Positions 9,511 through 23,486 of a DNA stretch of 23,486 bases are shown here, piece after piece (position 1 is the first letter of the stretch; the number at the start of each line of letters is the position of its first letter). This DNA comes from an uncultured Deinococcales bacterium (GTDB lineage Bacteria > Deinococcota > Deinococci > Deinococcales > JAAFIG01): positions 1 to 23,486 of the forward strand of contig CAXTKV010000064.1 in NCBI GenBank assembly GCA_964244895.1, in the 5' to 3' direction. The notes under the pieces are model-generated. The model had not been told where the DNA came from, ran no database searches, and was given only the letters and a program-made list of their open reading frames with translations. A program made the translations under genes and the position numbers.

Positions 9511-12500
9511 TCAAAAGTACAGCTTGAGCGTCACGACCTCGAAGGGCTTGACTTCCAGGCTGACGCGTTCGTCCTCGACCTCGAGCCAGCGACCTTTCTT
9601 CGGGCTGAAGCCCGCGTGACCGTTGCCCTCAATGGAATCCTCGAGCAAATTCACGCGCTCGGCGCGGCGCAAACCCGCGACCTCGAGCGTCGTCAGGCCG
9701 CGCGCGCCGTGCGGTTCGTACATCCGCAGGATCAGCGCGTCGTCATCGTCGGCTTTCTTGAGCGCCGCCAGCGTCAACGGCACGCCCGTGAGTTGCGCGA
9801 AGGCCGGACGGGCGCTGGGCGTGCTGACGCGAGCCACCACCAAAGGGCTGTTCAGGTCGAAGGCTTCCAGGGTCGTGTCGGCCTGCACCCAGTCGCCCGC
9901 GTGCGGGTAGAGGGCGTAGGTGAAACGGTGCGATCCCAGGTCGCTCTGGGGGTCGGGGTACATCGAGCCGCGCAGCAGCGTCAGCGACATCGTATCGCCC
10001 AGGACGGCGTGACCGTATCGCCCATCGTTGAGCAAGCTCACGCCGTAACCGGCTTCGGACAGGTCCATGAACCGGTGGGCGCTGACCTCGAATTGCGCGG
10101 CCTCGGCGGGCGAGTTGCGGTGCGTGGGTCGGGCTTGCGCGCCGAAGGCGGTTTCGAAGGTCGCGTGCGGCGCGCGCACGTTGACCGGAAAGAACGCCCG
10201 CAAGAGCGTCCGGCGCTCGTTCCATTCGATCTCGGTTTCGATCTCGATGCGTTTTGAGCCGCCGTACAGATGGTAAATCTGCGTGATGCTCGAGTTGCGC
10301 CAGCGCCGTTCGGTCTTGAGGGCCGCGCGCAACGGCCCGGATTCCAGAATCTGGATGGTTTCTGGCGCGGGCAAGGGTTCGCCCTCGAGTTCCATCTGCG
10401 GGTTGACATCCCAGGCTTCCCACGCGCCCGGCAAGTCGTGAAAGGCGCGAATCACGTTGGCGGGCCTGGAAATCACCTGGCGTTGGGATTCCTTGTCCAG
10501 CAGGTTCTGAATCGTGCCGTCCTCACCGATGGTCACGCGCAGAACCTCGTTCTCGAGCACCGCGCCGCGTTTGTTCAACTCGATGTGAACGATGGGGTTA
10601 TCGAAGCGCTCGAAGGCGTTCGGATCGAAGCTCAAGCCCACGATCCCCAACGGTGGCACGCTGATGTTCGGTGCACTGACCAGCACGCCGCCCTCCACAG
10701 TCTGGGACGGCACGGACGCCTGGTTGACATCGAAGGCCGCACCGATCGCACCGGGCAGCACGACCCGCAACGGGCGTTCCTGTAACGACGGGTTGACCAG
10801 CACCCACCAGCCGTCTCCGACACCGGCGATGGCCTCGACAGCCGTCTGACGCGTGGATTGCGCGGTGTCCAGCACGCTTTGTAGGTCGCTGTTGGCGTCC
10901 TGGTAGACCTCATTGATCGACGAGCCCGGCAGGATGTCGTGAAATTCGGCCAGCAGCAGACGCTTCCAGCTCTCTTCCAGGGTCGCGCGCGGGTACTCGA
11001 GCGCGCCCTCGACCCAGGCCAGGCTGGCCAGCACCTCGGTTTCCAGCAGGCGGTGTTCGGCCTCGCGGTGCAGTTTCTTGGTGCGGGACTGCGTGGTCAG
11101 CGTGCCCCGGTGCAATTCCAGGTACATCTCCCCGACCCACACCGGCAAACCCTCGCGCGGCAAACGCGCCATCAGTTCGTCCACGCGCGACATCTCGAGC
11201 GCGGGCAGGGCCGGGTAGTTCCGCAGGCGCTCGAAAGCCTCGAGCATCGGGGCGCTCGGGCCGCCGCCACCATCGCCGTAACCGAAGGTGTAGAGCGTCT
11301 CCGGGCCGCGATCACCCCAGATCGGCAGGCGCTTGCCCTTGAAATCGCGGTAGGTACCTAGAATCGATTCCGGGCTGAAATCGCCGTTGTAACTGCCGGT
11401 CGCTTCGCCGCCCCAGAAGGTGTTCTTGAAGGTGTGCGCCAGCACCCGCGAGCCGTCTTGACCTTCCCACCAGAACAAATCGTGCGGGAACTGGGAGGTC
11501 TCGTTCCAGTTGAGTTTGGTGGTGAAAAAATTGTTGATGCCCGCGCCCAACAGAAGCTGCGGCAGCGCGGGCGTGAACCCGAACGTGTCCGGCAACCAGG
11601 CCACGGTTGATCGGCGCTCGAAACGCGATTCGAAGTAACGCTGGCCGTACAGCAGCTGGCGCACCATCGATTCGCCGCCGACCATCTGCGCGTCCGGTTC
11701 GACCCACATGCCGCCGATGGCCTCGATCCGGCCTTCCAGCACGCGGGCGCGCACGCGCTCGAACATCACCGGGTCGTCCTGTTCCAGCCAGGCGTAAACC
11801 TGAGCCGAGGACTGGTTGAACACGAACTCCGGGTAGCGTTCCATCAGGCCCAGCACCGTCGCGAAGGTGCGGCGCAGTTTGCGGCGCGTCTCCGCCACGG
11901 GCCACAACCAGCCCAGATCCAGGTGCGCGTGCCCGGAAAGCGCCACCCGCCCGACGTTCGGATACCGCACCTGCAAACCCTGAATGCCGATCTGGAGGCG
12001 CTCCCGGATGTCCGAAATCTGATCGAGCGCGCCAAACTCGAGCGATTGCATCTCGGGCTGATCACCGGGCAGGTTCCACAGCGACTGGGCCATGTCTCGT
12101 CCCATGCTGCCCTGCCACAGCCGCGCCCGGTACGCGCCAGAATCCGACGGCCAGATCAGCGAATCCAGCGCTTTTTCTGCCACTCCCAGCAGGTGCGATA
12201 CGGCCTCGTGGTCGTTCAGGGCGCGGGCTGCGCCCAGCAGCGCGTCCAGATCCGCCACCAGATCGCGCACTTCCCGGTGCATCGCGACCAGGCTGGCGCG
12301 CTCGAGGCGCGGGTTCGGGTTGTGCTGACCGAACAGGGCTTTCGGCACGGCGTCTATCGTGACGCTCAGCTCCTCGCCACCGTAGGCTCTGGGGCTGACC
12401 TCGAAGCTCCGATGGTACGGGTTGAGTCCGCCAGAAACGCCGTTGGAGAGCTGCACGAAGCCCTCGCCACCGACGTTCAATTCCAGGTTGACGGGATGCC

Positions 12501-12729
12501 CGGCAAAGAACGCGGCGAGCTCGAAGGTCGCTTCCAGGCGCACCGGGCCGTTCTTGACGCTGGCGTCCACCACCGGCCAGGCATCACCGACCTGGATGGT
12601 CTGCGTCACGTCGCCCGCCGTGAACGTCCAGTCCTTGACGGGCACGTCGAAGGCGTCGCGCCAAGCGTTCAGTTCGTCGCGCCGTTTCTCGAGCAAACTC
12701 AGGCGTTGAGGGATGGTCAAATGCCACAT
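9511..12729 (-). CDS. Alpha-mannosidase, glycoside hydrolase family 38
   Basis: GHAHLDLGWLWP (Zn site), GGMWVEPD, WLPDTFG (nucleophile Asp), GYGDGGGGP, GEMYLELHRGT and FHDILPGSSI. Start set at ATG 12729 (MWHLTIPQ), which has TAAGCT 7 nt upstream. Confidence 0.95.
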   Translation of the reverse strand: MWHLTIPQRLSLLEKRRDELNAWRDAFDVPVKDWTFTAGDVTQTIQVGDAWPVVDASVKNGPVRLEATFELAAFFAGHPVNLELNVGGEGFVQLSNGVSGGLNPYHRSFEVSPRAYGGEELSVTIDAVPKALFGQHNPNPRLERASLVAMHREVRDLVADLDALLGAARALNDHEAVSHLLGVAEKALDSLIWPSDSGAYRARLWQGSMGRDMAQSLWNLPGDQPEMQSLEFGALDQISDIRERLQIGIQGLQVRYPNVGRVALSGHAHLDLGWLWPVAETRRKLRRTFATVLGLMERYPEFVFNQSSAQVYAWLEQDDPVMFERVRARVLEGRIEAIGGMWVEPDAQMVGGESMVRQLLYGQRYFESRFERRSTVAWLPDTFGFTPALPQLLLGAGINNFFTTKLNWNETSQFPHDLFWWEGQDGSRVLAHTFKNTFWGGEATGSYNGDFSPESILGTYRDFKGKRLPIWGDRGPETLYTFGYGDGGGGPSAPMLEAFERLRNYPALPALEMSRVDELMARLPREGLPVWVGEMYLELHRGTLTTQSRTKKLHREAEHRLLETEVLASLAWVEGALEYPRATLEESWKRLLLAEFHDILPGSSINEVYQDANSDLQSVLDTAQSTRQTAVEAIAGVGDGWWVLVNPSLQERPLRVVLPGAIGAAFDVNQASVPSQTVEGGVLVSAPNISVPPLGIVGLSFDPNAFERFDNPIVHIELNKRGAVLENEVLRVTIGEDGTIQNLLDKESQRQVISRPANVIRAFHDLPGAWEAWDVNPQMELEGEPLPAPETIQILESGPLRAALKTERRWRNSSITQIYHLYGGSKRIEIETEIEWNERRTLLRAFFPVNVRAPHATFETAFGAQARPTHRNSPAEAAQFEVSAHRFMDLSEAGYGVSLLNDGRYGHAVLGDTMSLTLLRGSMYPDPQSDLGSHRFTYALYPHAGDWVQADTTLEAFDLNSPLVVARVSTPSARPAFAQLTGVPLTLAALKKADDDDALILRMYEPHGARGLTTLEVAGLRRAERVNLLEDSIEGNGHAGFSPKKGRWLEVEDERVSLEVKPFEVVTLKLYF

Positions 12730-12806
12730 GACAGGCAGCTTATCGCAGCCACCGAAAGCGGCGCACCGCCGATGCACAGTTGCCGGAAGTGGAGGCCGTT
12801 CTTAAG

Positions 12807-15464: not shown

Positions 15465-16892
15465 ATGAGTCTCGTTGATCGGTTCTTCCCCGACCGGCCC
15501 GATGCCGCTGCCAAACTGTTCGTGACCTCGGCGGTCGTCTGGGCCGTCTGGGGCATGTCGCTCGGCTTTTTGATGGCCACCCAATTCATGTTCCCCGAGA
15601 TCACCAAGGACGTACCGCAACTTTCCTTCAGCCGCATCCGTCCCAGCCACGTCAACACGGTCGCGCTGATGTGGATCTCGATGGCCTCGGTCGGCGCGTG
15701 CTTCTACATGCTCCCCAGGCTGGTCAAAGCGCCGCTCTGGTCTGAGCGCCTGGGCACGATCACCGGTTGGGTCTGGAACATCTTCGGCGTGCTGATCACA
15801 CTGACCTTGACCAACGGCTACTCTGAAGGCCGCGAGTGGGCCGAACTGGTCGCCCCGATGGACTGGGCGTTCCTGGCCATTCTGGCCATGACCGCCATCA
15901 ACGTCTTCGGCACGGTCGCCAACCGCACGGAAAAGCAGCTCTACGTTTCCGTTTGGTACTGGATGGGTTCGATGATCGGCATGGCCATGACCTGGATCGT
16001 CGGCAACCGCACGTTCGTGCCGCTGGACGGGTTGAACGACGGCATCACCAACTGGTTCTACGCGCACGACGTGCTGGGCTTGTGGATCACCACCATGGGC
16101 GTCGGAATCGCGTACTACCTGCTGCCCAAGCTGACCCAGGGTCCCAACGGGGAACCCGGCAACCCAATTTTCTCGCACCGGCTTTCCCTGATCGGTTTCT
16201 GGGGCAACTTCGCGTTCTACACGGGCATCGGCGCACACCACATCATCCAGTCGCCCGTACCGGAATGGCTGAAGGCTTTCGCCATCGCGTCCTCAGTGCT
16301 GATGAGCGTGCCCGTCTACGCCGCCAGCGTCAACTTCTGGCTCTCGACCAACGGACGCTGGGGCAACCTGGCCTGGAACCTGCCGTTGCGCTTCTTGGTG
16401 TTCGGGTTGTTCGCGTATGCCATCGCATCGTTTCAGGGCAGTTTGCAGGCCGTGCGCGCCATCAACTGGTATCAGCATTTCACCGGCATCGTCTCGGCGC
16501 ACGCGCACCTGGCGCTTCTGGGCGGGTTTTCAGTGATTCTGTTCTCGTCGATCTATTACGCCCTGCCGCGCCTCTACCAGGCGGAATGGTACTCGAAGAA
16601 ACTCGTGATGGTTCACTTCTGGACTTTTGCGGGCGGCTTTTTGTTCTTCTTCACATCCTGGACGATCATGGGCTTCGTGCAGGCCGCCGCCTGGAACATG
16701 GGCATCAACGTCCAGCAGACGGTGCCTTTCTTGAAACCCTTCATCTGGGCGCGCTGGCTGGGTGCGGCCACGATGATCTTCGGCGTCTATATTTTCGCCT
16801 ACAACGCCCTCCAGACGGTGCGAGCCGCCAAACGCGCCCTCGCCTCGAGCCCCGCAGCCCCGGCGCTCGCCCCGGCAGCGGCGGATGACTGA
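15465..16892 (+). CDS. ccoN: C-family (cbb3-type) heme-copper oxidase subunit I, divergent
   Basis: RIRPSHVN (heme b His), REWAE, WFYAH (CuB His), Y-x5-HH (helix VII cross-link Tyr plus CuB His pair), HFT...HAH (b3/b ligands); about 12 TM helices. Confidence 0.92.
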   Translation: MSLVDRFFPDRPDAAAKLFVTSAVVWAVWGMSLGFLMATQFMFPEITKDVPQLSFSRIRPSHVNTVALMWISMASVGACFYMLPRLVKAPLWSERLGTITGWVWNIFGVLITLTLTNGYSEGREWAELVAPMDWAFLAILAMTAINVFGTVANRTEKQLYVSVWYWMGSMIGMAMTWIVGNRTFVPLDGLNDGITNWFYAHDVLGLWITTMGVGIAYYLLPKLTQGPNGEPGNPIFSHRLSLIGFWGNFAFYTGIGAHHIIQSPVPEWLKAFAIASSVLMSVPVYAASVNFWLSTNGRWGNLAWNLPLRFLVFGLFAYAIASFQGSLQAVRAINWYQHFTGIVSAHAHLALLGGFSVILFSSIYYALPRLYQAEWYSKKLVMVHFWTFAGGFLFFFTSWTIMGFVQAAAWNMGINVQQTVPFLKPFIWARWLGAATMIFGVYIFAYNALQTVRAAKRALASSPAAPALAPAAADD

Positions 16893-16904
16893 GGAGGAGG
16901 CAAC

Positions 16905-17828
16905 GTGCTGAACACCAAGAATTTCATCGTCGGACTGATGTTCGTGTTGCTCCTGACCGGCATCGTGTCCTTGACCGTGGTGATCCCCGCAGCCAGCTTC
17001 AACCCGGAACCCACACCGGGCTTGAGGCCGTACACAACAGCTGAATTGAAGGGTCGCGCGATCTTCCAGCGCGAGAACTGCTACGTCTGCCACAGTCAGT
17101 TCGTGCGCTATCAGGACGAAGGCATGGGGCCGAGCGCTCAGGCGGGCGATTTCGCCTACGACCGCGTCAACCTGTTGGGCACGCTGCGCAATGGCCCGGA
17201 TCTTTCATACGAAGGCGGCCTCTACCCGGACGAATGGCACATCGGGCACCTCAAATCGCCCCGCAGCTACCTGCCAGGCTCGTACATGCCCAGCTACAGC
17301 TACCTTGCGGACAGCGACCTGAAAGACCTGGTGTCGTACGTGCAGAGTTTGGGTACGCGCAACACGCGCGCCTGGGAAGTCAAGGATGTCAACATCCCAG
17401 AAAAGTACCGCGACCTGAAATCGCCCTTCGGTGGCAGCCCGAACGCCGCCGCCGCCGGGCGCGGCATCTTCAACCAGAACTGCTCCGCCTGCCACGGCTT
17501 CGAGGGTCGCGCCGACGTGCCGCTCGCGCGGGTTTTCTATCCGAAACCCGCCGCGAACTTTCACCTGCCGCGCTACAAGGACTTCACCGACGGTCACTGG
17601 TTCAACAAGGTTGCCAGGGGCGTGCCCGGTACGCGCATGCCGCGCTGGGATCAGACGCTCAACGATGAGCAAGTCTGGTACGTCGTCGAATACCTGAAAT
17701 CCTTGGCTGCCGACCAGGATCTGGTGCCCAAAGCGGGCCGCGAGAAGTACTACGACAAGTCCGTGCTTCAGCCCGGTGACAAGGAAATCGTCATTCCTGG
17801 CGCGCCCAAATCCGGCGGGGGACACTGA
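16905..17828 (+). CDS. ccoO: cbb3-type oxidase subunit II (CcoO) fused to a second cytochrome c domain
   Basis: TM anchor, GRAIFQRENCYVCHSQFVR, RNGPDL and PGSYMP; second domain with CSACH and PGTRMPRW; GAGGAGG RBS. Confidence 0.9.
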   Translation: MLNTKNFIVGLMFVLLLTGIVSLTVVIPAASFNPEPTPGLRPYTTAELKGRAIFQRENCYVCHSQFVRYQDEGMGPSAQAGDFAYDRVNLLGTLRNGPDLSYEGGLYPDEWHIGHLKSPRSYLPGSYMPSYSYLADSDLKDLVSYVQSLGTRNTRAWEVKDVNIPEKYRDLKSPFGGSPNAAAAGRGIFNQNCSACHGFEGRADVPLARVFYPKPAANFHLPRYKDFTDGHWFNKVARGVPGTRMPRWDQTLNDEQVWYVVEYLKSLAADQDLVPKAGREKYYDKSVLQPGDKEIVIPGAPKSGGGH

Positions 17829-17830
17829 TC

Positions 17831-18193
17831 GTGCGCCGCCCGATTGACCCGATCAGCTCGAGAAAACACCGTCCAGGACGGTCTTTAGCTCTTGCGTCCC
17901 GGACGGTCTTCTCTCGAGCTGCCAGACGCGCGATCCCGGTCGCGCTGCTGTTCGGTTCGAGCGCCTTCGCGGATCACATCCCGCCCGTCGGCCTCGACTA
18001 CCAGGGAACCTGGGTGGTGTTGATCGCGGTCGGCGTGATCACGGCCTTGCTGATTTTGTCGTTGCTGTGGGCCTACCTGGACGGTCAATTCACCAACCCC
18101 GAACGCATCAAGTTCGATGTCACCCAACCCGATAACGACTGGCCTTTCGGTCGCGGAACCGCCCTCGAGCGCCCAGAACCGGAAAAGCACTAG
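17831..18193 (+). CDS. CcoS-like small membrane protein with N-terminal extension
   Basis: TM helix ending LWAYLDGQFTNPE resembles the CcoS W-A-x-x-x-G-Q-F motif; possible signal peptide ending AFA-DH; start uncertain. Confidence 0.65.
   Translation: MRRPIDPISSRKHRPGRSLALASRTVFSRAARRAIPVALLFGSSAFADHIPPVGLDYQGTWVVLIAVGVITALLILSLLWAYLDGQFTNPERIKFDVTQPDNDWPFGRGTALERPEPEKH
17855..17920. repeat. REP-like family A, locus 11 (inside the respiratory operon)
   Basis: AGCTCGAGAAAACACCGTCCAGGACGG...TTGCGTCCCGGACGGTCTTCTCTCGAGCT. Confidence 0.8.
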
Positions 18194-18200
18194 GAGGCTT

Positions 18201-18386
18201 ATGGCAGACGACGCCCCCCAAACCGAGCGCGACGATGGCAGCGTTCACGACCACCACGACAACACCCACGAGATCGCTGGCATCAAAGTCGGCGAGAACG
18301 CCGTACCCGCGTCCGCCATTTTCGTGTTTATCGCCATCATCGCCATCGCACTTTTGATCTCGTGGATTCCGGCGCAGGGGTTCTGA
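18201..18386 (+). CDS. Small single-TM protein resembling the CcoP/FixP N-terminal segment
   Basis: AGGAGG RBS; HEIAGIKVGENAVP followed by a TM helix resembles the CcoP H-E-x-D-G-I-x-E-x-x-N-P-x-P motif; stop overlaps the next start (TGATG). Confidence 0.7.
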   Translation: MADDAPQTERDDGSVHDHHDNTHEIAGIKVGENAVPASAIFVFIAIIAIALLISWIPAQGF

Positions 18387-19342
18387 TGCAAACCAAACCC
18401 AGCACACTGATGGCAGCACTGGCGCTTTTACTGGCGCTCGATGCGTGTTCCATCAAAACCTCCGCCAACAGCCCAGCCAAGGAAGGCGCGCAGCAGGGGA
18501 AAGTGGAATTGCGCCCACTCGATGTTTCCCCAGAGGAAGCCACCTACCAGTTCAACTACCCGAAATACCCGCAGCAGTACACCGTCAATCCCCTTGATCG
18601 GGATTACATGAGCGGACGCACCGATCCCAAAGACGCCGTGGCTGAGCTCGGTTCTTACGCCGGGCCGTGGATCGAAGGCGCAGAGGCCGACTTGCTGCCC
18701 GTCAGTGCGCCGAACGTCAACCTCGGCAACACGATCTTTAAGGCCATCGGCGCGAGCGTCACCGCGAACATGAAACCCTCGCTCGAGGACAGTCCGCTCC
18801 AGGCATTCTTGAAAGTCCGATCCGGTTTGCAACGCGCTGGTCTGAAGAACGTCAAAAACCTCGAATTTGCCCTACCCGCCAGCGGTCAGAAAGTCACCGT
18901 GGACGTACCGCTCGACAAGGAAGCCATCTGGAGCCTGACGTTCGCGCTCTACCAGAAGCTCGAACCCGACTGGCACGCACCCATCGCCTCAAGGCTCAAC
19001 CCCGGTTGCAGTCCGACCGATAAGGACAAATGTAAATCTGGCGATCAGCTTTTCGTCGCCAACTGCGGCATGTGCCACGGCTCCGACGGCTGGGGACGCG
19101 GTCACAGCGGCAAGATGCTCCAACCACAACCCGCCAACTTCCACGAGCGCCGCCGCCTGTACAACCGCTCCGAGGCGCGTTTGCGCTCGGTGCTGCACAA
19201 TGGCATCTACGGTTCGGCCATGCCCCCGTGGGCGGACAAGCTTTCCGAAGAAGAAATCAACCACCTGGTCGCGTACATCCGGTCGTTCTCCTACACGAGT
19301 GAACCCTACGTGCCAGCGAAGGTCAAGGTGAGCGTCCAGTGA
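18386..19342 (+). CDS. Lipoprotein c-type cytochrome (monoheme C-terminal domain)
   Basis: MQTKPSTLMAALALLLALDA-C lipobox-like signal; CGMCH, QPANF and GSAMPPW. Confidence 0.88.
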   Translation: MQTKPSTLMAALALLLALDACSIKTSANSPAKEGAQQGKVELRPLDVSPEEATYQFNYPKYPQQYTVNPLDRDYMSGRTDPKDAVAELGSYAGPWIEGAEADLLPVSAPNVNLGNTIFKAIGASVTANMKPSLEDSPLQAFLKVRSGLQRAGLKNVKNLEFALPASGQKVTVDVPLDKEAIWSLTFALYQKLEPDWHAPIASRLNPGCSPTDKDKCKSGDQLFVANCGMCHGSDGWGRGHSGKMLQPQPANFHERRRLYNRSEARLRSVLHNGIYGSAMPPWADKLSEEEINHLVAYIRSFSYTSEPYVPAKVKVSVQ

Positions 19343-20016
19343 ACATCGATCGTCGCACCATCCTCAGGGGTTTGACCGCCATCCCGATCCTGGCCGCGCT
19401 CGGCAGTCTGGGAGCTGTCCTGGTTTCGTACCTGAAGCCCACGACCGCGCCACTTCAAGCGCCGACCACGGAAAAACCCTTGAATAAGGATCTGGTCGCC
19501 GCCACCCTGGACGAATTCAAGCAGGAATGGGACGTGCGCGAATTCATCTTCATTCAAGAAACAGTCGAATACAGCGCCCGAGGCAAACAGGCCTCGAACA
19601 TTCCCGGATTCGCACTCCGCATCCCGAACGACAAGCTCGATCCGGCTGAAGTCGGCGTCGGCCCGAACGGTCTGCGGCGCGGTTACGGCGTGGCCGACTT
19701 CAACGGCCAGAAATATTCACTGGTGGTCGTCTCGCGCATCTGCGCGCACCTGGGTTGCATCTTCCAGTACCACACCGGCGACGAGGTCTGCACGGGCTTC
19801 AACTACTGCGGCGAAAGCACCAAGGTCGCAGGAAGGGAAGGCCACCCGCTCTTCTCGTGCCCGTGCCACCTGTCCGTTTACAACCCGATCTTGGCGGGCG
19901 AAGGCAACGGTCAGAAACTGGCCGGTCTGGTCGTGTCCGGCCCTGCACCGCGCCCACCGTTCCCGTTTGATTTCACCATCGAAGATGGCAAGGTCATCAT
20001 CAAGGCCTACGCCTGA
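19339..20016 (+). CDS. Rieske [2Fe-2S] subunit of a cytochrome bc complex
   Basis: Tat-type DRRTILRG anchor, CAHLGC and CPCHLSVY boxes, GPAPRP loop. Confidence 0.93.
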   Translation: MNIDRRTILRGLTAIPILAALGSLGAVLVSYLKPTTAPLQAPTTEKPLNKDLVAATLDEFKQEWDVREFIFIQETVEYSARGKQASNIPGFALRIPNDKLDPAEVGVGPNGLRRGYGVADFNGQKYSLVVVSRICAHLGCIFQYHTGDEVCTGFNYCGESTKVAGREGHPLFSCPCHLSVYNPILAGEGNGQKLAGLVVSGPAPRPPFPFDFTIEDGKVIIKAYA

Positions 20017-20073
20017 ACTTTTCTCGAGGATTTCCCCTAACGTGATCTCGAGCCCTGCTTGAAGGAGGATTGA

Positions 20074-21408
20074 ATGGCAGCACCAACCGTCGGTCAAGTA
20101 GGCACCCCAGCCGCGCCGAAAAAAGCCGCACCAAGTGTCGGTCAACGCATCGCTACGTGGTGGCGCAAGAGCGCGCAGAATCTCGATCTGTTCGACGAGA
20201 ACAGCCACGACAAGATCAAGACCGATCCGTGGTTGATGGCGGGCGGCATGGCCATGCTGTTCTGGTTAATCACGATTGCGACCGGAGCCGTGCTGATCTT
20301 CTTTTACATCCCCGACGCTTCATCGCCGGGCTACCTGGCCTGGATTTCCGTGCGCGCCATTCAGGAAGGCAATCAGGGTTGGATCATCTCGATCGTCCGC
20401 AACCTGCACAAATACGCGGCGGATGCGCTGATCATCGCGCTGACCATCCGGATTTACCGCATGTACTTCCGGGGCGAGTTTAAAAATTACAACCAGCTCT
20501 CGTTCATGCTGACCATCATCGGGTTGATCCTCTCGATGTTCTCCGGCCTGACGGGCTACTTGTTAATCTGGAACCAGCGCGCGCTGTGGGCCACCAAGGT
20601 CTTCGCTACTTTCCCGACATTCGTGGACAACTTTCATCAGATTCCGACCATCGCCGTGTATTTCCCGTGGCTGGCGCACCTGCTCGAGATCACGTTAGGG
20701 CAGTTGCAGATCGGTCACACCATCGCCAATTACATGCTGGCCGGTCAGTACATCGGCCCCGCAACGCTGGTGCGTTTCTACCCGGCGCACTACATGCTTT
20801 CAATCCTGACGCTGATTTTGGTCGAGGCCTACTTCGCCCGCAAAGGCAAGGGCAAAGGCAACCAACCCGGTACCGGCGGCGGCGCGGGACGCGTGGCGCG
20901 CATCAACCTGCCGTGGTACTCGGTCTTGACCTTCACGGTGATGCTGCTGGTGATTTCAATCGCTGTTCCGGTCGACACGGGCTCGCCCGCCAACCCGAGC
21001 GTCACGCCGAACCCGATCCTTTCGGACTGGTACTTCCTGGGCCTCTACCAGATGATGAAGCTCTGGCAGCCCGCTACGGCGACCTTGCAGACGATCCTGT
21101 TGCCCGTGGTCGCGTTCGCCTGCGCCTTTCTTGACGCCAGCCCGGAGCGCAACCCATGGAAACGCCCATTCTGGACCATCGTGGGCATCTACGGCTTCGT
21201 GGCCTGGATCGCCTTCAGCGTACTGATCTGCCTGTCCATCGCGGACATCAAGCGCGACCCACCGATCATCTACACCGTCTCCATGATCATGCTGGGTGTG
21301 GGCATGATCTGGCACTGGTTGCAACGCGCGAGCGTGCATCGCAAAGCCAAAGCGCTCGAGGCCGCCAAGCTCGCGGCGGTTGTTCCGGCTCCAGCGGCAG
21401 GGGATTGA
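20074..21408 (+). CDS. Cytochrome b (A): full length, Qo-like SDWY motif, only the two bL His ligands
   Basis: RNLHKY, GLTGYLLIWNQRALWA, TLVRFYPAH and PANPSVTPNPILSDWYFL; AAGGAGG RBS. Confidence 0.92.
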   Translation: MAAPTVGQVGTPAAPKKAAPSVGQRIATWWRKSAQNLDLFDENSHDKIKTDPWLMAGGMAMLFWLITIATGAVLIFFYIPDASSPGYLAWISVRAIQEGNQGWIISIVRNLHKYAADALIIALTIRIYRMYFRGEFKNYNQLSFMLTIIGLILSMFSGLTGYLLIWNQRALWATKVFATFPTFVDNFHQIPTIAVYFPWLAHLLEITLGQLQIGHTIANYMLAGQYIGPATLVRFYPAHYMLSILTLILVEAYFARKGKGKGNQPGTGGGAGRVARINLPWYSVLTFTVMLLVISIAVPVDTGSPANPSVTPNPILSDWYFLGLYQMMKLWQPATATLQTILLPVVAFACAFLDASPERNPWKRPFWTIVGIYGFVAWIAFSVLICLSIADIKRDPPIIYTVSMIMLGVGMIWHWLQRASVHRKAKALEAAKLAAVVPAPAAGD

Positions 21409-21409
21409 G

Positions 21410-21709
21410 ATGAAGGGCACGCTCTGGCTGATCTCCATCACCCTGTTCATCGCGACCATCGCGGTGTTCTCGAGCGGCTACGCCACCCTGATGGCGTACT
21501 TCACAGCGCCCACGACCTCCGGTCTGGTCAGCATCATGGGGCACCTGCTGGTTCTGCTCGCGTTGATCGGTATGCTGGGATTCATCATGTACGCGACTGA
21601 ACGCAAAGCTGGAAACGTCAAAATCAAGAACCATCTCTTCGAGCGTTTGCTCGGGTACGCGCCGGACGCGCCGCTCCCCGATCTCGAGAAGCGAGAGGTT
21701 CGCCGATGA
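21410..21709 (+). CDS. Small 2-TM hypothetical membrane protein
   Basis: ATG 1 nt after the cytochrome b stop; two hydrophobic helices; ATGA overlap with the next gene. Confidence 0.8.
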   Translation: MKGTLWLISITLFIATIAVFSSGYATLMAYFTAPTTSGLVSIMGHLLVLLALIGMLGFIMYATERKAGNVKIKNHLFERLLGYAPDAPLPDLEKREVRR

Positions 21710-22029
21710 ATCAGGCCGTCAAGAACCTGCTGGCGCTCGTGCTGATCATCGGGGGGCTCGGATTTTCCGGCTTGACCATCGGTGCGTTCGCGCATCAGAA
21801 CCCGAACCTGCCCGCGCCTCTCAACCTGATCCGCGACCTGGAGGGGTTCGCCAGTTCGATCCTCTTGGGTTGGACGGAACTGACCAAACCCGACATGGCC
21901 GTTCACGCCTTCTCAAGGGGCTTCACCTACATGGGTCTGGCCATCGTCCTGACGTCCATCGCTGCAATGCTGGTATCCGGCACGCGGCGCGATAGCGTTC
22001 CCGTCCCCGGACGCAGAAAGGGGGCATGA
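21706..22029 (+). CDS. Small 2-TM hypothetical membrane protein
   Basis: Translationally coupled on both sides; two hydrophobic helices flanking a loop. Confidence 0.8.
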   Translation: MNQAVKNLLALVLIIGGLGFSGLTIGAFAHQNPNLPAPLNLIRDLEGFASSILLGWTELTKPDMAVHAFSRGFTYMGLAIVLTSIAAMLVSGTRRDSVPVPGRRKGA

Positions 22030-23214
22030 ATGGCCTCACGTACCGCAGACCAGGCTCCAGGCCCCGAAGCTCGAGGCTACGAGAAGGTGCTCGACGGAAT
22101 TCACCGGGGCATCGTCTCGATCGACAAACTGATCAACCGCGTCATCCCAGAAGAATTTAACCCGTTCTACTACCTCGGTGGGATCACCAACGTGCTTTGG
22201 GTGCTTCTGGTTCCCACCGGCGTGTTCTTGTGGTTTTACTACCAGCCCACGGAATCGCAGGCCTACAGCAGCGTCTCTTATCTGACCAACGGCGTGTTTT
22301 TCGGCAGCGTGATTCGCGGCATTCACCGCTACGCGGGTGACGGCATGCTGATCCTGGCGGTGCTCCACCTGCTCAGGAATTACTTCACCGACCGCTACCG
22401 CGGCTTCCGCGACGTTCCGTGGGTTTCAGGCGTGGTGCTGCTGTTGCTGACTGGCTTGATCGGCCTGACGGGCTATTTGCTGGTCTGGGATCAGCGCGCG
22501 TTGGTGATCACCGACGCGATGGTCAAAACCCTTCAGGGCCTCGATCTGGTGATCGCTGGCTTCGGCACGTGGCTGGCGCAGGGCTTGTTGGGCGGCGACC
22601 AGACGAACAACCTGACGTTGCCCAGAATGTTTTTCCTTCACGTCGGACTGGCTGTGCTGGTGTTCTTCTTCTTGTGGGTTCACTACTTGCGCCTGCACCG
22701 CCCGAAGATCTGGCCGCCGACCTTCGTGACGCTCCTGACCATCGGTCTGGTGCTGGTCGTGGCGGGCCTCTCACCCGTCGAAACGCTGCCGCCCGCCACC
22801 GTGCCGCTCGCGCAGGGCACGTCGATGCCTTTCGATGTCGTGTACCTGTGGCCCGTGCTGTTCCTCTCGAGCATGCCCGCCTGGGTGGTGCTGGGCCTCC
22901 TGCTGGTGGTCTTCGCGGTGCTGTTCGTCGTGCCATGGTTGCCCGCCAAGACACACCGTTACGTCAACGTCGCCACGGTCACGCCAGAAAATTGCACCGG
23001 ATGCCAGTTGTGCGCGATCGACTGCCCCTTTGACGCCATCGTGATGGTCGCTGGAACGAACCCCAACCCGCGCTATAACGAACTGGCTGTGGTCAACGAC
23101 GACAAGTGCGCCGAGTGCGGCATCTGCGTCGGTGCGTGCCCGTTCCACGCGATCAACCTGCCGCTGGCGGACGAGTACAAGATTCAGGAACAGGTGGTGG
23201 CCCTCCTCAAATGA
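22030..23214 (+). CDS. Cytochrome b (B) fused to a C-terminal 2x[4Fe-4S] ferredoxin domain
   Basis: NPFYYLGGIT; H-x13-H in helix B (RGIH...VLH) and helix D (FLH...WVH); GLTGYLLVWDQR; CTGCQLCAIDCP and CAECGICVGACP. Confidence 0.92.
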   Translation: MASRTADQAPGPEARGYEKVLDGIHRGIVSIDKLINRVIPEEFNPFYYLGGITNVLWVLLVPTGVFLWFYYQPTESQAYSSVSYLTNGVFFGSVIRGIHRYAGDGMLILAVLHLLRNYFTDRYRGFRDVPWVSGVVLLLLTGLIGLTGYLLVWDQRALVITDAMVKTLQGLDLVIAGFGTWLAQGLLGGDQTNNLTLPRMFFLHVGLAVLVFFFLWVHYLRLHRPKIWPPTFVTLLTIGLVLVVAGLSPVETLPPATVPLAQGTSMPFDVVYLWPVLFLSSMPAWVVLGLLLVVFAVLFVVPWLPAKTHRYVNVATVTPENCTGCQLCAIDCPFDAIVMVAGTNPNPRYNELAVVNDDKCAECGICVGACPFHAINLPLADEYKIQEQVVALLK

Positions 23215-23486
23215 CACAAGCTGCCGAAACACCCACCACACCGAACGTGCTGGCCGCCAACGGCAAGCCGAAAATCATCGGCTTCGTCTGCGAGTGGAGC
23301 TTGGGCCGCACCGACCTGATCTTCGAGGACGGCACGGTCAAAGGCATGGAGCACATCAAAACCATCAAGATTCCCTGCTCGGGCTTTGTCAAGACCGAGT
23401 GGGTCACGCTGGCCTTCGAGAACGGCGCCCAGGGCGTGTTCGTGCTGGGCTGCCCGTTGCGCGATTGTCACTTCAACGAGGGCAAC
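23211..23486 (+). CDS. MvhD/FlpD-like [2Fe-2S] subunit, 5' part (truncated by the window edge)
   Basis: Manual translation: MTQAAETPTTPNVLAANGKPKIIGFVCEWS...IKIPCSGFVKTEWVTLAFENGAQGVFVLGCPLRDCHFNEGN. This matches the MvhD pattern PKIxxFxC, CSGRV, GADGVxxxGCxxxDCHYxxGN. ATGA overlap with the previous gene; absent from the ORF track. Confidence 0.87.
   Translation, partial: MTQAAETPTTPNVLAANGKPKIIGFVCEWSLGRTDLIFEDGTVKGMEHIKTIKIPCSGFVKTEWVTLAFENGAQGVFVLGCPLRDCHFNEGN

Follow-up and report, generated by a model that had tools for sequence, protein, structure and literature searches.

Locus and operon structure

The stretch of DNA analysed here (the window, 23,486 nt) covers all of contig C64 from a Deinococcales genome that is 91% complete, and its nearest named relatives are metagenome-assembled genomes (MAGs) of uncultured Deinococcales. 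One operon on the forward strand (15465-23486) runs from haem-copper oxidase genes through a cytochrome c, a Rieske protein, a first cytochrome b (A), two small proteins (s1 and s2) and a second cytochrome b (B) to an MvhD-like protein. A and B are about 27% identical to each other, and their losses are reciprocal: A keeps a Qo site and has lost the ligands of haem bH, and B keeps the ligands of both haems and has no canonical Qo site. Judged from their sequences, the two unlike cytochromes b probably build a naturally asymmetric complex III. Every residue and coordinate given for A and B in an earlier note on this DNA was found in place.

Oxidase subunit I (15465..16892; this and all following genes on the + strand) is of the C family (cbb3-like; PF00115, E 1e-75), has the His motifs and the helix-VII Tyr, and matches ccoN (TIGR00780) at E 2.5e-73, under the curated cut-off. 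It is followed by a CcoO/FixO protein fused to a second cytochrome c domain (16905..17828; PF02433 and PF00034, with CxxCH at 17079 and 17481), two small proteins with a single transmembrane (TM) helix, both conserved in position in the family loci (17831..18193 and 18201..18386), and a membrane-anchored cytochrome c with one CxxCH (18386..19342; PF13442/PF00034), which is likely the electron acceptor of the Rieske protein. The open reading frame (ORF) at 17831..18193 probably starts later than drawn, since its family homologs have 86-100 amino acids. The Rieske [2Fe-2S] protein (19339..20016) carries both cluster boxes (19741-19758 and 19858-19881), with a Ser/Tyr pair in the second. Between A (20074..21408) and B (22030..23214) lie two accessory 2-TM proteins, s1 (21410..21709), with no conserved His seen, and s2 (21706..22029), as they do in the other loci displayed. 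The last gene of the operon encodes an MvhD/FlpD-like [2Fe-2S] protein (PF02662, E 8e-18), the N-terminal part of which, with all four Cys, lies at 23211..23486; the gene runs on from C64 to contig C275.

Searches of the host genome returned one COX1 match, two cytochromes b and a single FlpD match, and the genome also carries futalosine-pathway genes and NuoF. No bd oxidase was found in it, and alternative complex III was not searched for. In 18 of 19 family genomes, no haem-copper oxidase was found other than that of the operon. The operon probably encodes the complex III-IV of this organism and its main route to O2.

Loss of the inner haem site in cytochrome b(A)

A (444 amino acids, eight TM helices) resembles cytochrome b6 plus subunit IV by profile alignment, structural model and fold match. 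A scan of genomes for its relatives returned 303, and the 80 best of these are the basis of the residue and locus counts below. They come from Deinococcales, Vampirovibrionia, Symbiobacterium, Armatimonadota, Holophagaceae, Solibacteraceae and one Anaerolineae. The bL ligands of A, H112 (20407-20409) and H239 (20788-20790), are His in 80/80 homologs. In the profile alignment, the bH ligand positions of cytochrome b6 are occupied by Arg126 (20449-20451) and Tyr253 (20830-20832, 14 residues after H239), the latter at the place of the fourth His of b6. Position 126 is Arg in 68 homologs, Lys in 12 and His in none, and position 253 is Tyr in 57, Arg in 16, His in 5, and Phe and Leu in one each. 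Both bH ligands had been reported as gone from A, which holds for the window, and the helix-B His never occurs in the 80, but the helix-D His is kept in five of them. The helix-C residues of the bH site are also mostly lost (Gly in 14/80, Trp in 7/80), and deeper relatives, with PDWY instead of SDWY, show the bH loss likewise. Local decay of A is ruled out by the conservation of this loss across homologs.

The elements of the Qo site are kept in A, namely the cd1 helix (20569-20616) and an SDWY motif (21022-21033) that aligns with the PEWY region of subunit IV. The patterns used in the scan of relatives included SDWY, so that its presence in 80/80 is biased; it is, however, found in all 16 aligned rows of a pattern-free search. 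The Gly/Lys-rich loop that the earlier note described after helix D is present at 20839-20898, but it is lineage-specific, with a gap at position 258 in 62/80 homologs.

A could also bind a second haem or other cofactor through non-His ligands (Tyr or His plus Lys), and so have a low-potential chain of its own to which B is accessory. Two residues of the bH site, Gly57 and Arg129, are invariant (80/80), position 253 is Tyr (57/80) or His (5/80) in most homologs, and an invariant set of charged residues on the N side lacks an explanation. However, position 126 is Arg in 68/80, 18/80 have Arg, Phe or Leu at position 253, Lys126 and His253 occur together in 1/80, and helix C has lost its Gly and Trp. 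Lys/His or Lys/Tyr as a general pair of ligands was rejected, since such a pair is found in just 4/80. This arrangement is considered very improbable. Haem cn was likewise rejected for both chains, which lack its attachment Cys (CxGG): the corresponding position is Cys in just 1/80 A homologs (position 55) and Tyr or Phe in 68/68 B homologs (position 48).

The charged set consists of D38, D41, E42, E251 and R276 (80/80; window 20185-20199, 20824-20826 and 20899-20901), with D41 aligned to Asp20 of b6. From sequence, it could fill the bH site as an ion-pair network, conduct protons, or offer MvhD a docking face.

Cytochrome b(B) and its iron-sulphur arm

B (394 amino acids) has six TM helices (A-F) followed by a C-terminal 2x[4Fe-4S] domain. 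It carries the four haem ligands H99, H113, H204 and H218 and, in addition, H223. That B keeps all four is borne out by its homologs, in which they are His in 74, 74, 71 and 71 of the rows that cover each position. The additional His, five residues after the second bH ligand, is present in the window as described, but in only 18 of 71 homologs. The PEWY position of B reads PFDVVYL (22828-22848), and Trp is found at position 270 in 24/70 homologs that are paired with A.

Nearly all A-paired B proteins (66/68) carry a His on the N side: 46 only where helix A begins, 14 only where helix D ends, and 6 at both places. Position 49 of B adjoins the position of the haem-cn Cys of b6. In B proteins from loci without Rieske (described below), 37/72 have no His at either place. 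From this pattern, we read the N-side His as a putative quinone ligand, retained and supplied from either flank of a Qi pocket.

The two CxxCxxCxxxC motifs of B lie at 22993-23025 and 23107-23139. All eight Cys of the ferredoxin domain are conserved in 68/68 homologs, and the four Cys of MvhD in 64/64. The N-side loops of B are rich in Lys and Arg and the P-side loops are not; thus, the ferredoxin domain, which follows helix F, is cytoplasmic by predicted topology, where the earlier note had placed it. An extracytoplasmic position is ruled out by the helix count and the charge bias. The tandem of ferredoxin and MvhD matches successive parts of the HdrA2 profile (571-640 and 645-720) and also PDB 9sfi_A. 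MvhD is the electron entry port in the HdrA module.

The B-C loop of B (22387-22410) has a conserved Thr-Asp-Arg-x-Arg-x-x-Arg, largely common to the B proteins of loci without Rieske. The ferredoxin domain may dock there, beneath bH.

Conservation and co-occurrence of A and B

A is present at 70-77% identity in 18/18 other genomes of the family, and at a threshold of E 1e-60, 150 further genomes of the phylum yielded no A-type protein. Among its carriers are Vampirovibrio chlorellavorus (L080) and Symbiobacterium thermophilum (a MAG, L048). Gene order is constant across loci with enough flanking sequence: Rieske lies upstream of A in 77/78, and CcoN, B and MvhD are in place in 60/61, 71/73 and 63/65, respectively. 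The reciprocal losses of A and B, the conservation of which had been left for comparison with homologous operons, are conserved across several phyla (80 loci).

Both loci without an adjacent B (L065 and L068) keep B and MvhD on another contig (L192 and L193), so these two candidates for loci with A alone were rejected. The operon break in these two small Vampirovibrionales genomes lies after s2. The 91 genomes of the class that contains Vampirovibrio fall into 53 that carry A as well as B and 38 that lack both.

Conservation differs between the two proteins in opposite directions on the two sides of the membrane. Averaged over alignment columns, conservation in the cd1 and ef segments is 0.94 and 0.89 for A vs 0.50 and 0.42 for B, and in the BC loop on the bH side it is 0.61 for A vs 0.74 for B.

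B-type proteins without A or Rieske

Chains in which cytochrome b, ferredoxin and MvhD are fused are common. A metagenome scan was queried with 27 of 66 such proteins, and the best 80 of 542 loci were kept. None of these 80 has a Rieske protein or A. A subunit I, which we take to be eNOR-like partly on the basis of its motif, is found in 37/37 loci with at least 3.5 kb upstream. The label also follows passages of a preprint (10.64898/2026.01.22.701106).

Seven second copies of B-type genes were seen among the Rieske-less loci, and the two that were scanned carry [2Fe-2S], flavin adenine dinucleotide (FAD) and nicotinamide adenine dinucleotide (NAD) domains. The eNOR-like operons with two B-type genes are L173 (5672-11530), L168, L171, L172, L180, L186 and L187. 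In these operons, one B ends in [2Fe-2S]-FAD-NAD and the other in ferredoxin-MvhD, and a degenerate COX1-like protein is also present.

Rieske-less B proteins keep a P-side D-W-aromatic motif at the PEWY position in 73/73. After dereplication, their identity is 0.66 in cd1 vs 0.55 over the whole TM region, against 0.38 vs 0.44 in A-paired B; a more diverse set of fused B proteins, of unknown context, is intermediate (0.41 vs 0.39). The P-side motif of B thus decays specifically when B is paired with A.

A tree was built from 67 rows of the four-helix domain, with the two bH columns removed. A-type proteins (99/96) form one group in it, as do all B (100/100) and, among these, the Rieske-less or fused ones (100/100). 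The Rieske-less and fused forms nest inside A-paired B, although on unstarred nodes. An origin of A and B from one duplication was considered and dropped, as the tree lends it no support (56/18 for A and B as sisters).

Pairing of A and B

Confident single-chain models have a predicted local distance difference test (pLDDT) score of 84.6 for A, with eight TM helices, and 88.2 for B, with six TM helices plus ferredoxin, and both match cytochrome b folds. Co-folding of A, B and three haems scored 0.35, with 0.00 for the best control; contacts agreed to at least 78%, and partner pLDDT was at least 74. The mark applied was reached by 116/157 solved pairs and 2/215 mismatched pairs; passes at 0.60 or less comprise 18/157 solved pairs but also both of the passing mismatches. 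The comparison covered A-B, with the A2 and B2 homodimers outside it. The score is weak support for binding of A to B. On the whole, an A-B heterodimer is likely.

Passages of PMC7908018 place the Rieske anchor on the opposite monomer in bc complexes, so that A would structurally need a partner. A cross-subunit route is feasible, since a Rhodobacter bc1 engineered to lack bH in one half, with Qo blocked in the other half, allows growth, as described in passages of PMC4152375; the same passages report symmetric bH knockouts of bc1 as non-functional in vivo.

A and B could instead be separate modules of one supercomplex with no bL-bL wire between them. B, ferredoxin and MvhD would form an entry wire from the cytoplasm to quinone or to the oxidase, as in eNOR-type operons, and A with Rieske would be a one-haem quinol:cytochrome c oxidoreductase working without a Q-cycle. 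This fits the position of Rieske-less B behind an eNOR-like subunit I, the absence of Rieske and A from those loci, the FAD/NAD domains of some of the B-type proteins there, the two loci in which B and MvhD have moved away from A as a unit, and the weak co-folding score. However, the P-side motif of B decays specifically in the presence of A, A keeps both bL ligands (80/80), a dead end without an acceptor, the symmetric bH knockouts do not function, and the Rieske-less forms nest inside A-paired B, with the reservation about nodes given above. Separate modules are regarded as unlikely.

Proposed electron path

From the anatomy, conservation, co-occurrence and topology described above, we infer a dimer, a haem wire across it, a Qi site in B and a direction for the iron-sulphur arm. 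The core of complex III would be an A-B heterodimer with three b haems, in which menaquinol is oxidised at the Qo site of A only. The first electron would pass through Rieske and cytochrome c to the C-family oxidase and O2. The second would cross from bL of A to bL of B and on to bH of B, and would reduce menaquinone at a Qi-like site on the N side of B. The 2x[4Fe-4S]-MvhD arm beneath bH of B would be an N-side electron port, which either buffers an electron for the two-electron reduction of quinone or admits electrons from a low-potential donor in the cytoplasm. This cross-subunit Q-cycle, with the arm as cytoplasmic entry port or buffer, is the reading that we tentatively favour, at somewhat short of even chances.

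MvhD takes electrons in within the HdrA module. N-side electron entry has been proposed in b6f, by way of FNR and haem cn (passages of PMC7908018), so entry or buffering is favoured over export for the arm. The sole oxidase route found in the family genomes implies that the second electron must return to quinone.

Several points weigh against this proposal. B occurs without A or Rieske and can be a self-sufficient module, not merely the complement of A. The sisterhood of A and B is unsupported in the tree, and their co-occurrence is trivial for neighbouring genes and weak on its own. The weak co-folding pass may reflect resemblance to solved homodimers of cytochrome b. Only 18/71 B homologs have the canonical Qi His, and the apparent swap of His positions in B rests on about three lineages, with position 49 facing the pocket by assumed geometry. 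Residues of the bH site in A (Gly57 and Arg129) have stayed invariant. No cytoplasmic donor for the arm turned up.

With the same heterodimer, the low-potential electron could be exported from bH of B through [4Fe-4S] and MvhD to a cytoplasmic acceptor, as O2-driven bifurcation. The wire is complete and cytoplasmic, with all its Cys conserved (68/68 and 64/64), and the canonical Qi His is poorly conserved in B. Rieske keeps the Ser/Tyr pair, which often marks a higher potential, although the rule is not strict. With menaquinone at -60 mV (passages of PMC7908018) and assumed ranges for the Rieske potential (150-300 mV) and the membrane potential (120-150 mV), the lowest reachable cytoplasmic potential is calculated as -120 to -390 mV. 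A well oxidised Rieske at an assumed 250-300 mV would give -310 to -390 mV, but one at 150 mV gives a floor of just -120 to -270 mV. Reduction of NAD+ is possible solely in a favourable corner of this envelope, and the energetics are marginal. Quinol:NAD+ activity has been proposed for a related Rieske-less protein in passages of a preprint (10.64898/2026.01.22.701106).

A flavoprotein or NAD(P)-binding redox partner, which the earlier note had proposed to look for beyond 23486, is not there; the next gene on C275 is protein-kinase-like. No flavoprotein was found after MvhD in 61 loci, of which 19 have no same-strand next ORF; the ORFs of the other 42 comprise kinases, ribosomal S16, cupredoxins, an Fe-S carrier, a metal ATPase, one short-chain dehydrogenase and unannotated ORFs. 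There is no HdrA flavoprotein partner in the operon or adjoining it, and no genome-wide HdrA search was made. An obligatory loss of half of the electrons would also need a matching sink, given the sole oxidase route found. Net export is judged unlikely. A wider form, with a three-haem heterodimer and O2-pulled bifurcation that sends electrons through bL-bL and ferredoxin-MvhD to cytoplasmic carriers, or runs reversibly, is likewise held unlikely. Net output of cytoplasmic reductant driven by O2, the headline of that note, is weakened by the missing flavoprotein, the sole oxidase route and the energetics, and the other option in that note, electron entry to a Qi site in B, is the better fit.

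Relation to known complexes

The system is a real, conserved variant of Rieske/cytochrome b complexes, and both the operon and the architecture of B are already in print. As the earlier note had stated, operons with two cytochrome b genes have been noted: a Melainabacterial complex III-IV operon with two cytochrome bc proteins is described in passages of 10.1101/531145 and of PMC6349859. Its gene set and order are alike, with a C-family oxidase and both cytochrome b genes in one operon, and the Vampirovibrionia orthologs are 38-44% (A) and 34-43% (B) identical to the proteins here. The passages on that operon do not mention haem-ligand loss, the ferredoxin fusion, MvhD or asymmetry, and the present operon is in an uncultured Deinococcales family. 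The Melainabacterial complex III-IV operon was reportedly also treated by Soo in 2017.

Compared with bc1 and b6f, the operon has a Rieske protein with both cluster boxes, a cytochrome c, the cytochrome b fold, and cd1 plus a PDWY-type motif in A. It differs in that the Qo-bearing cytochrome b has two haem His and not four, B lacks a canonical Qo and helices G-H, there is no haem-cn Cys, and an Fe-S arm has been added. The engineered Rhodobacter bc1 (H212N in one half and G158W in the other; passages of PMC4152375) likewise lacks bH beside an active Qo, and B has a bulky residue, Ile160, at the G158 equivalent in the half with intact haems. The present system differs from it in being natural and in having two genes, one Rieske gene, a ferredoxin and MvhD.

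The PDWF-FeS clade of Kao and Hunte 2014 (passages of PMC4122944) comprises cytochrome b with 4Fe-4S and MvhD-like domains, the same architecture as B, whereas in the present operon MvhD has a gene of its own and the PDWF/PDWY motif of B has decayed. Entries without any one of the four His were removed in that study, according to the same passages, which excludes A-type proteins. The cytochrome b-FeS protein of eNOR operons (Ferrigenium; passages of 10.64898/2026.01.22.701106) falls in the same B clade (100/100) and also lies beside a haem-copper enzyme, but these B-type proteins have no Rieske or A, an intact P-side motif and, in some, FAD/NAD domains. The C-terminal ferredoxin-MvhD module of HdrA is alike; here it is attached to a membrane dihaem protein, with no HdrA flavin domain in the operon.

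Passages of Dibrova 2017 (PMC5600118) describe a cyanobacterial subfamily (K) that is His-less and another (L) with SxWF; the A/B pair was not found in those text portions or in the text supplements, the tree figures being outside this coverage. The Geobacter Ext cluster, suggested by the best NCBIfam match (ExtP), was rejected, as it has a single cytochrome b (passages of PMC5877670). Full-text searches, with Dibrova 2013, ten Brink 2013 and the supplement of Soo 2017 outside their coverage, returned no description of the reciprocal haem and Qo losses.

Two questions about bc complexes are still open, why they are dimers and what bL-bL transfer contributes physiologically, if anything; the meaning of the H-shaped system is called unclear in passages of PMC7908018. 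A natural enzyme working solely through the bL-bL bridge would make this directly testable. If correct, the cross-subunit reading would also redefine the respiration of non-photosynthetic relatives of cyanobacteria and give a function to the large cytochrome b-ferredoxin-MvhD family. Were the export reading true, quinone-based bifurcation would be tied directly to soluble low-potential metabolism, and Melainabacteria, like several other lineages, would have it as their main aerobic chain.

Other features of the loci

A promoter scan returned 0 sites vs 1.9 expected. In the oxidase (16053-16073), the residue after the first CuB His is Asp in Deinococcales (12/66 loci) and Asn in others. The cytochrome c at 18386-19342 has one CxxCH here and two in most of the distant homologs. 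A Ser/Thr kinase-like gene lies a few hundred bases 3' of MvhD in most family loci examined (e.g. L110, 3391-4179). In Vampirovibrionales (L051-L080), a conserved His-rich small membrane protein with no Pfam match is found between MvhD and ribosomal S16. Upstream of the operon, the window carries an ORF of 1088 amino acids (9511-12777) that appears alpha-mannosidase-like as read from its sequence alone.

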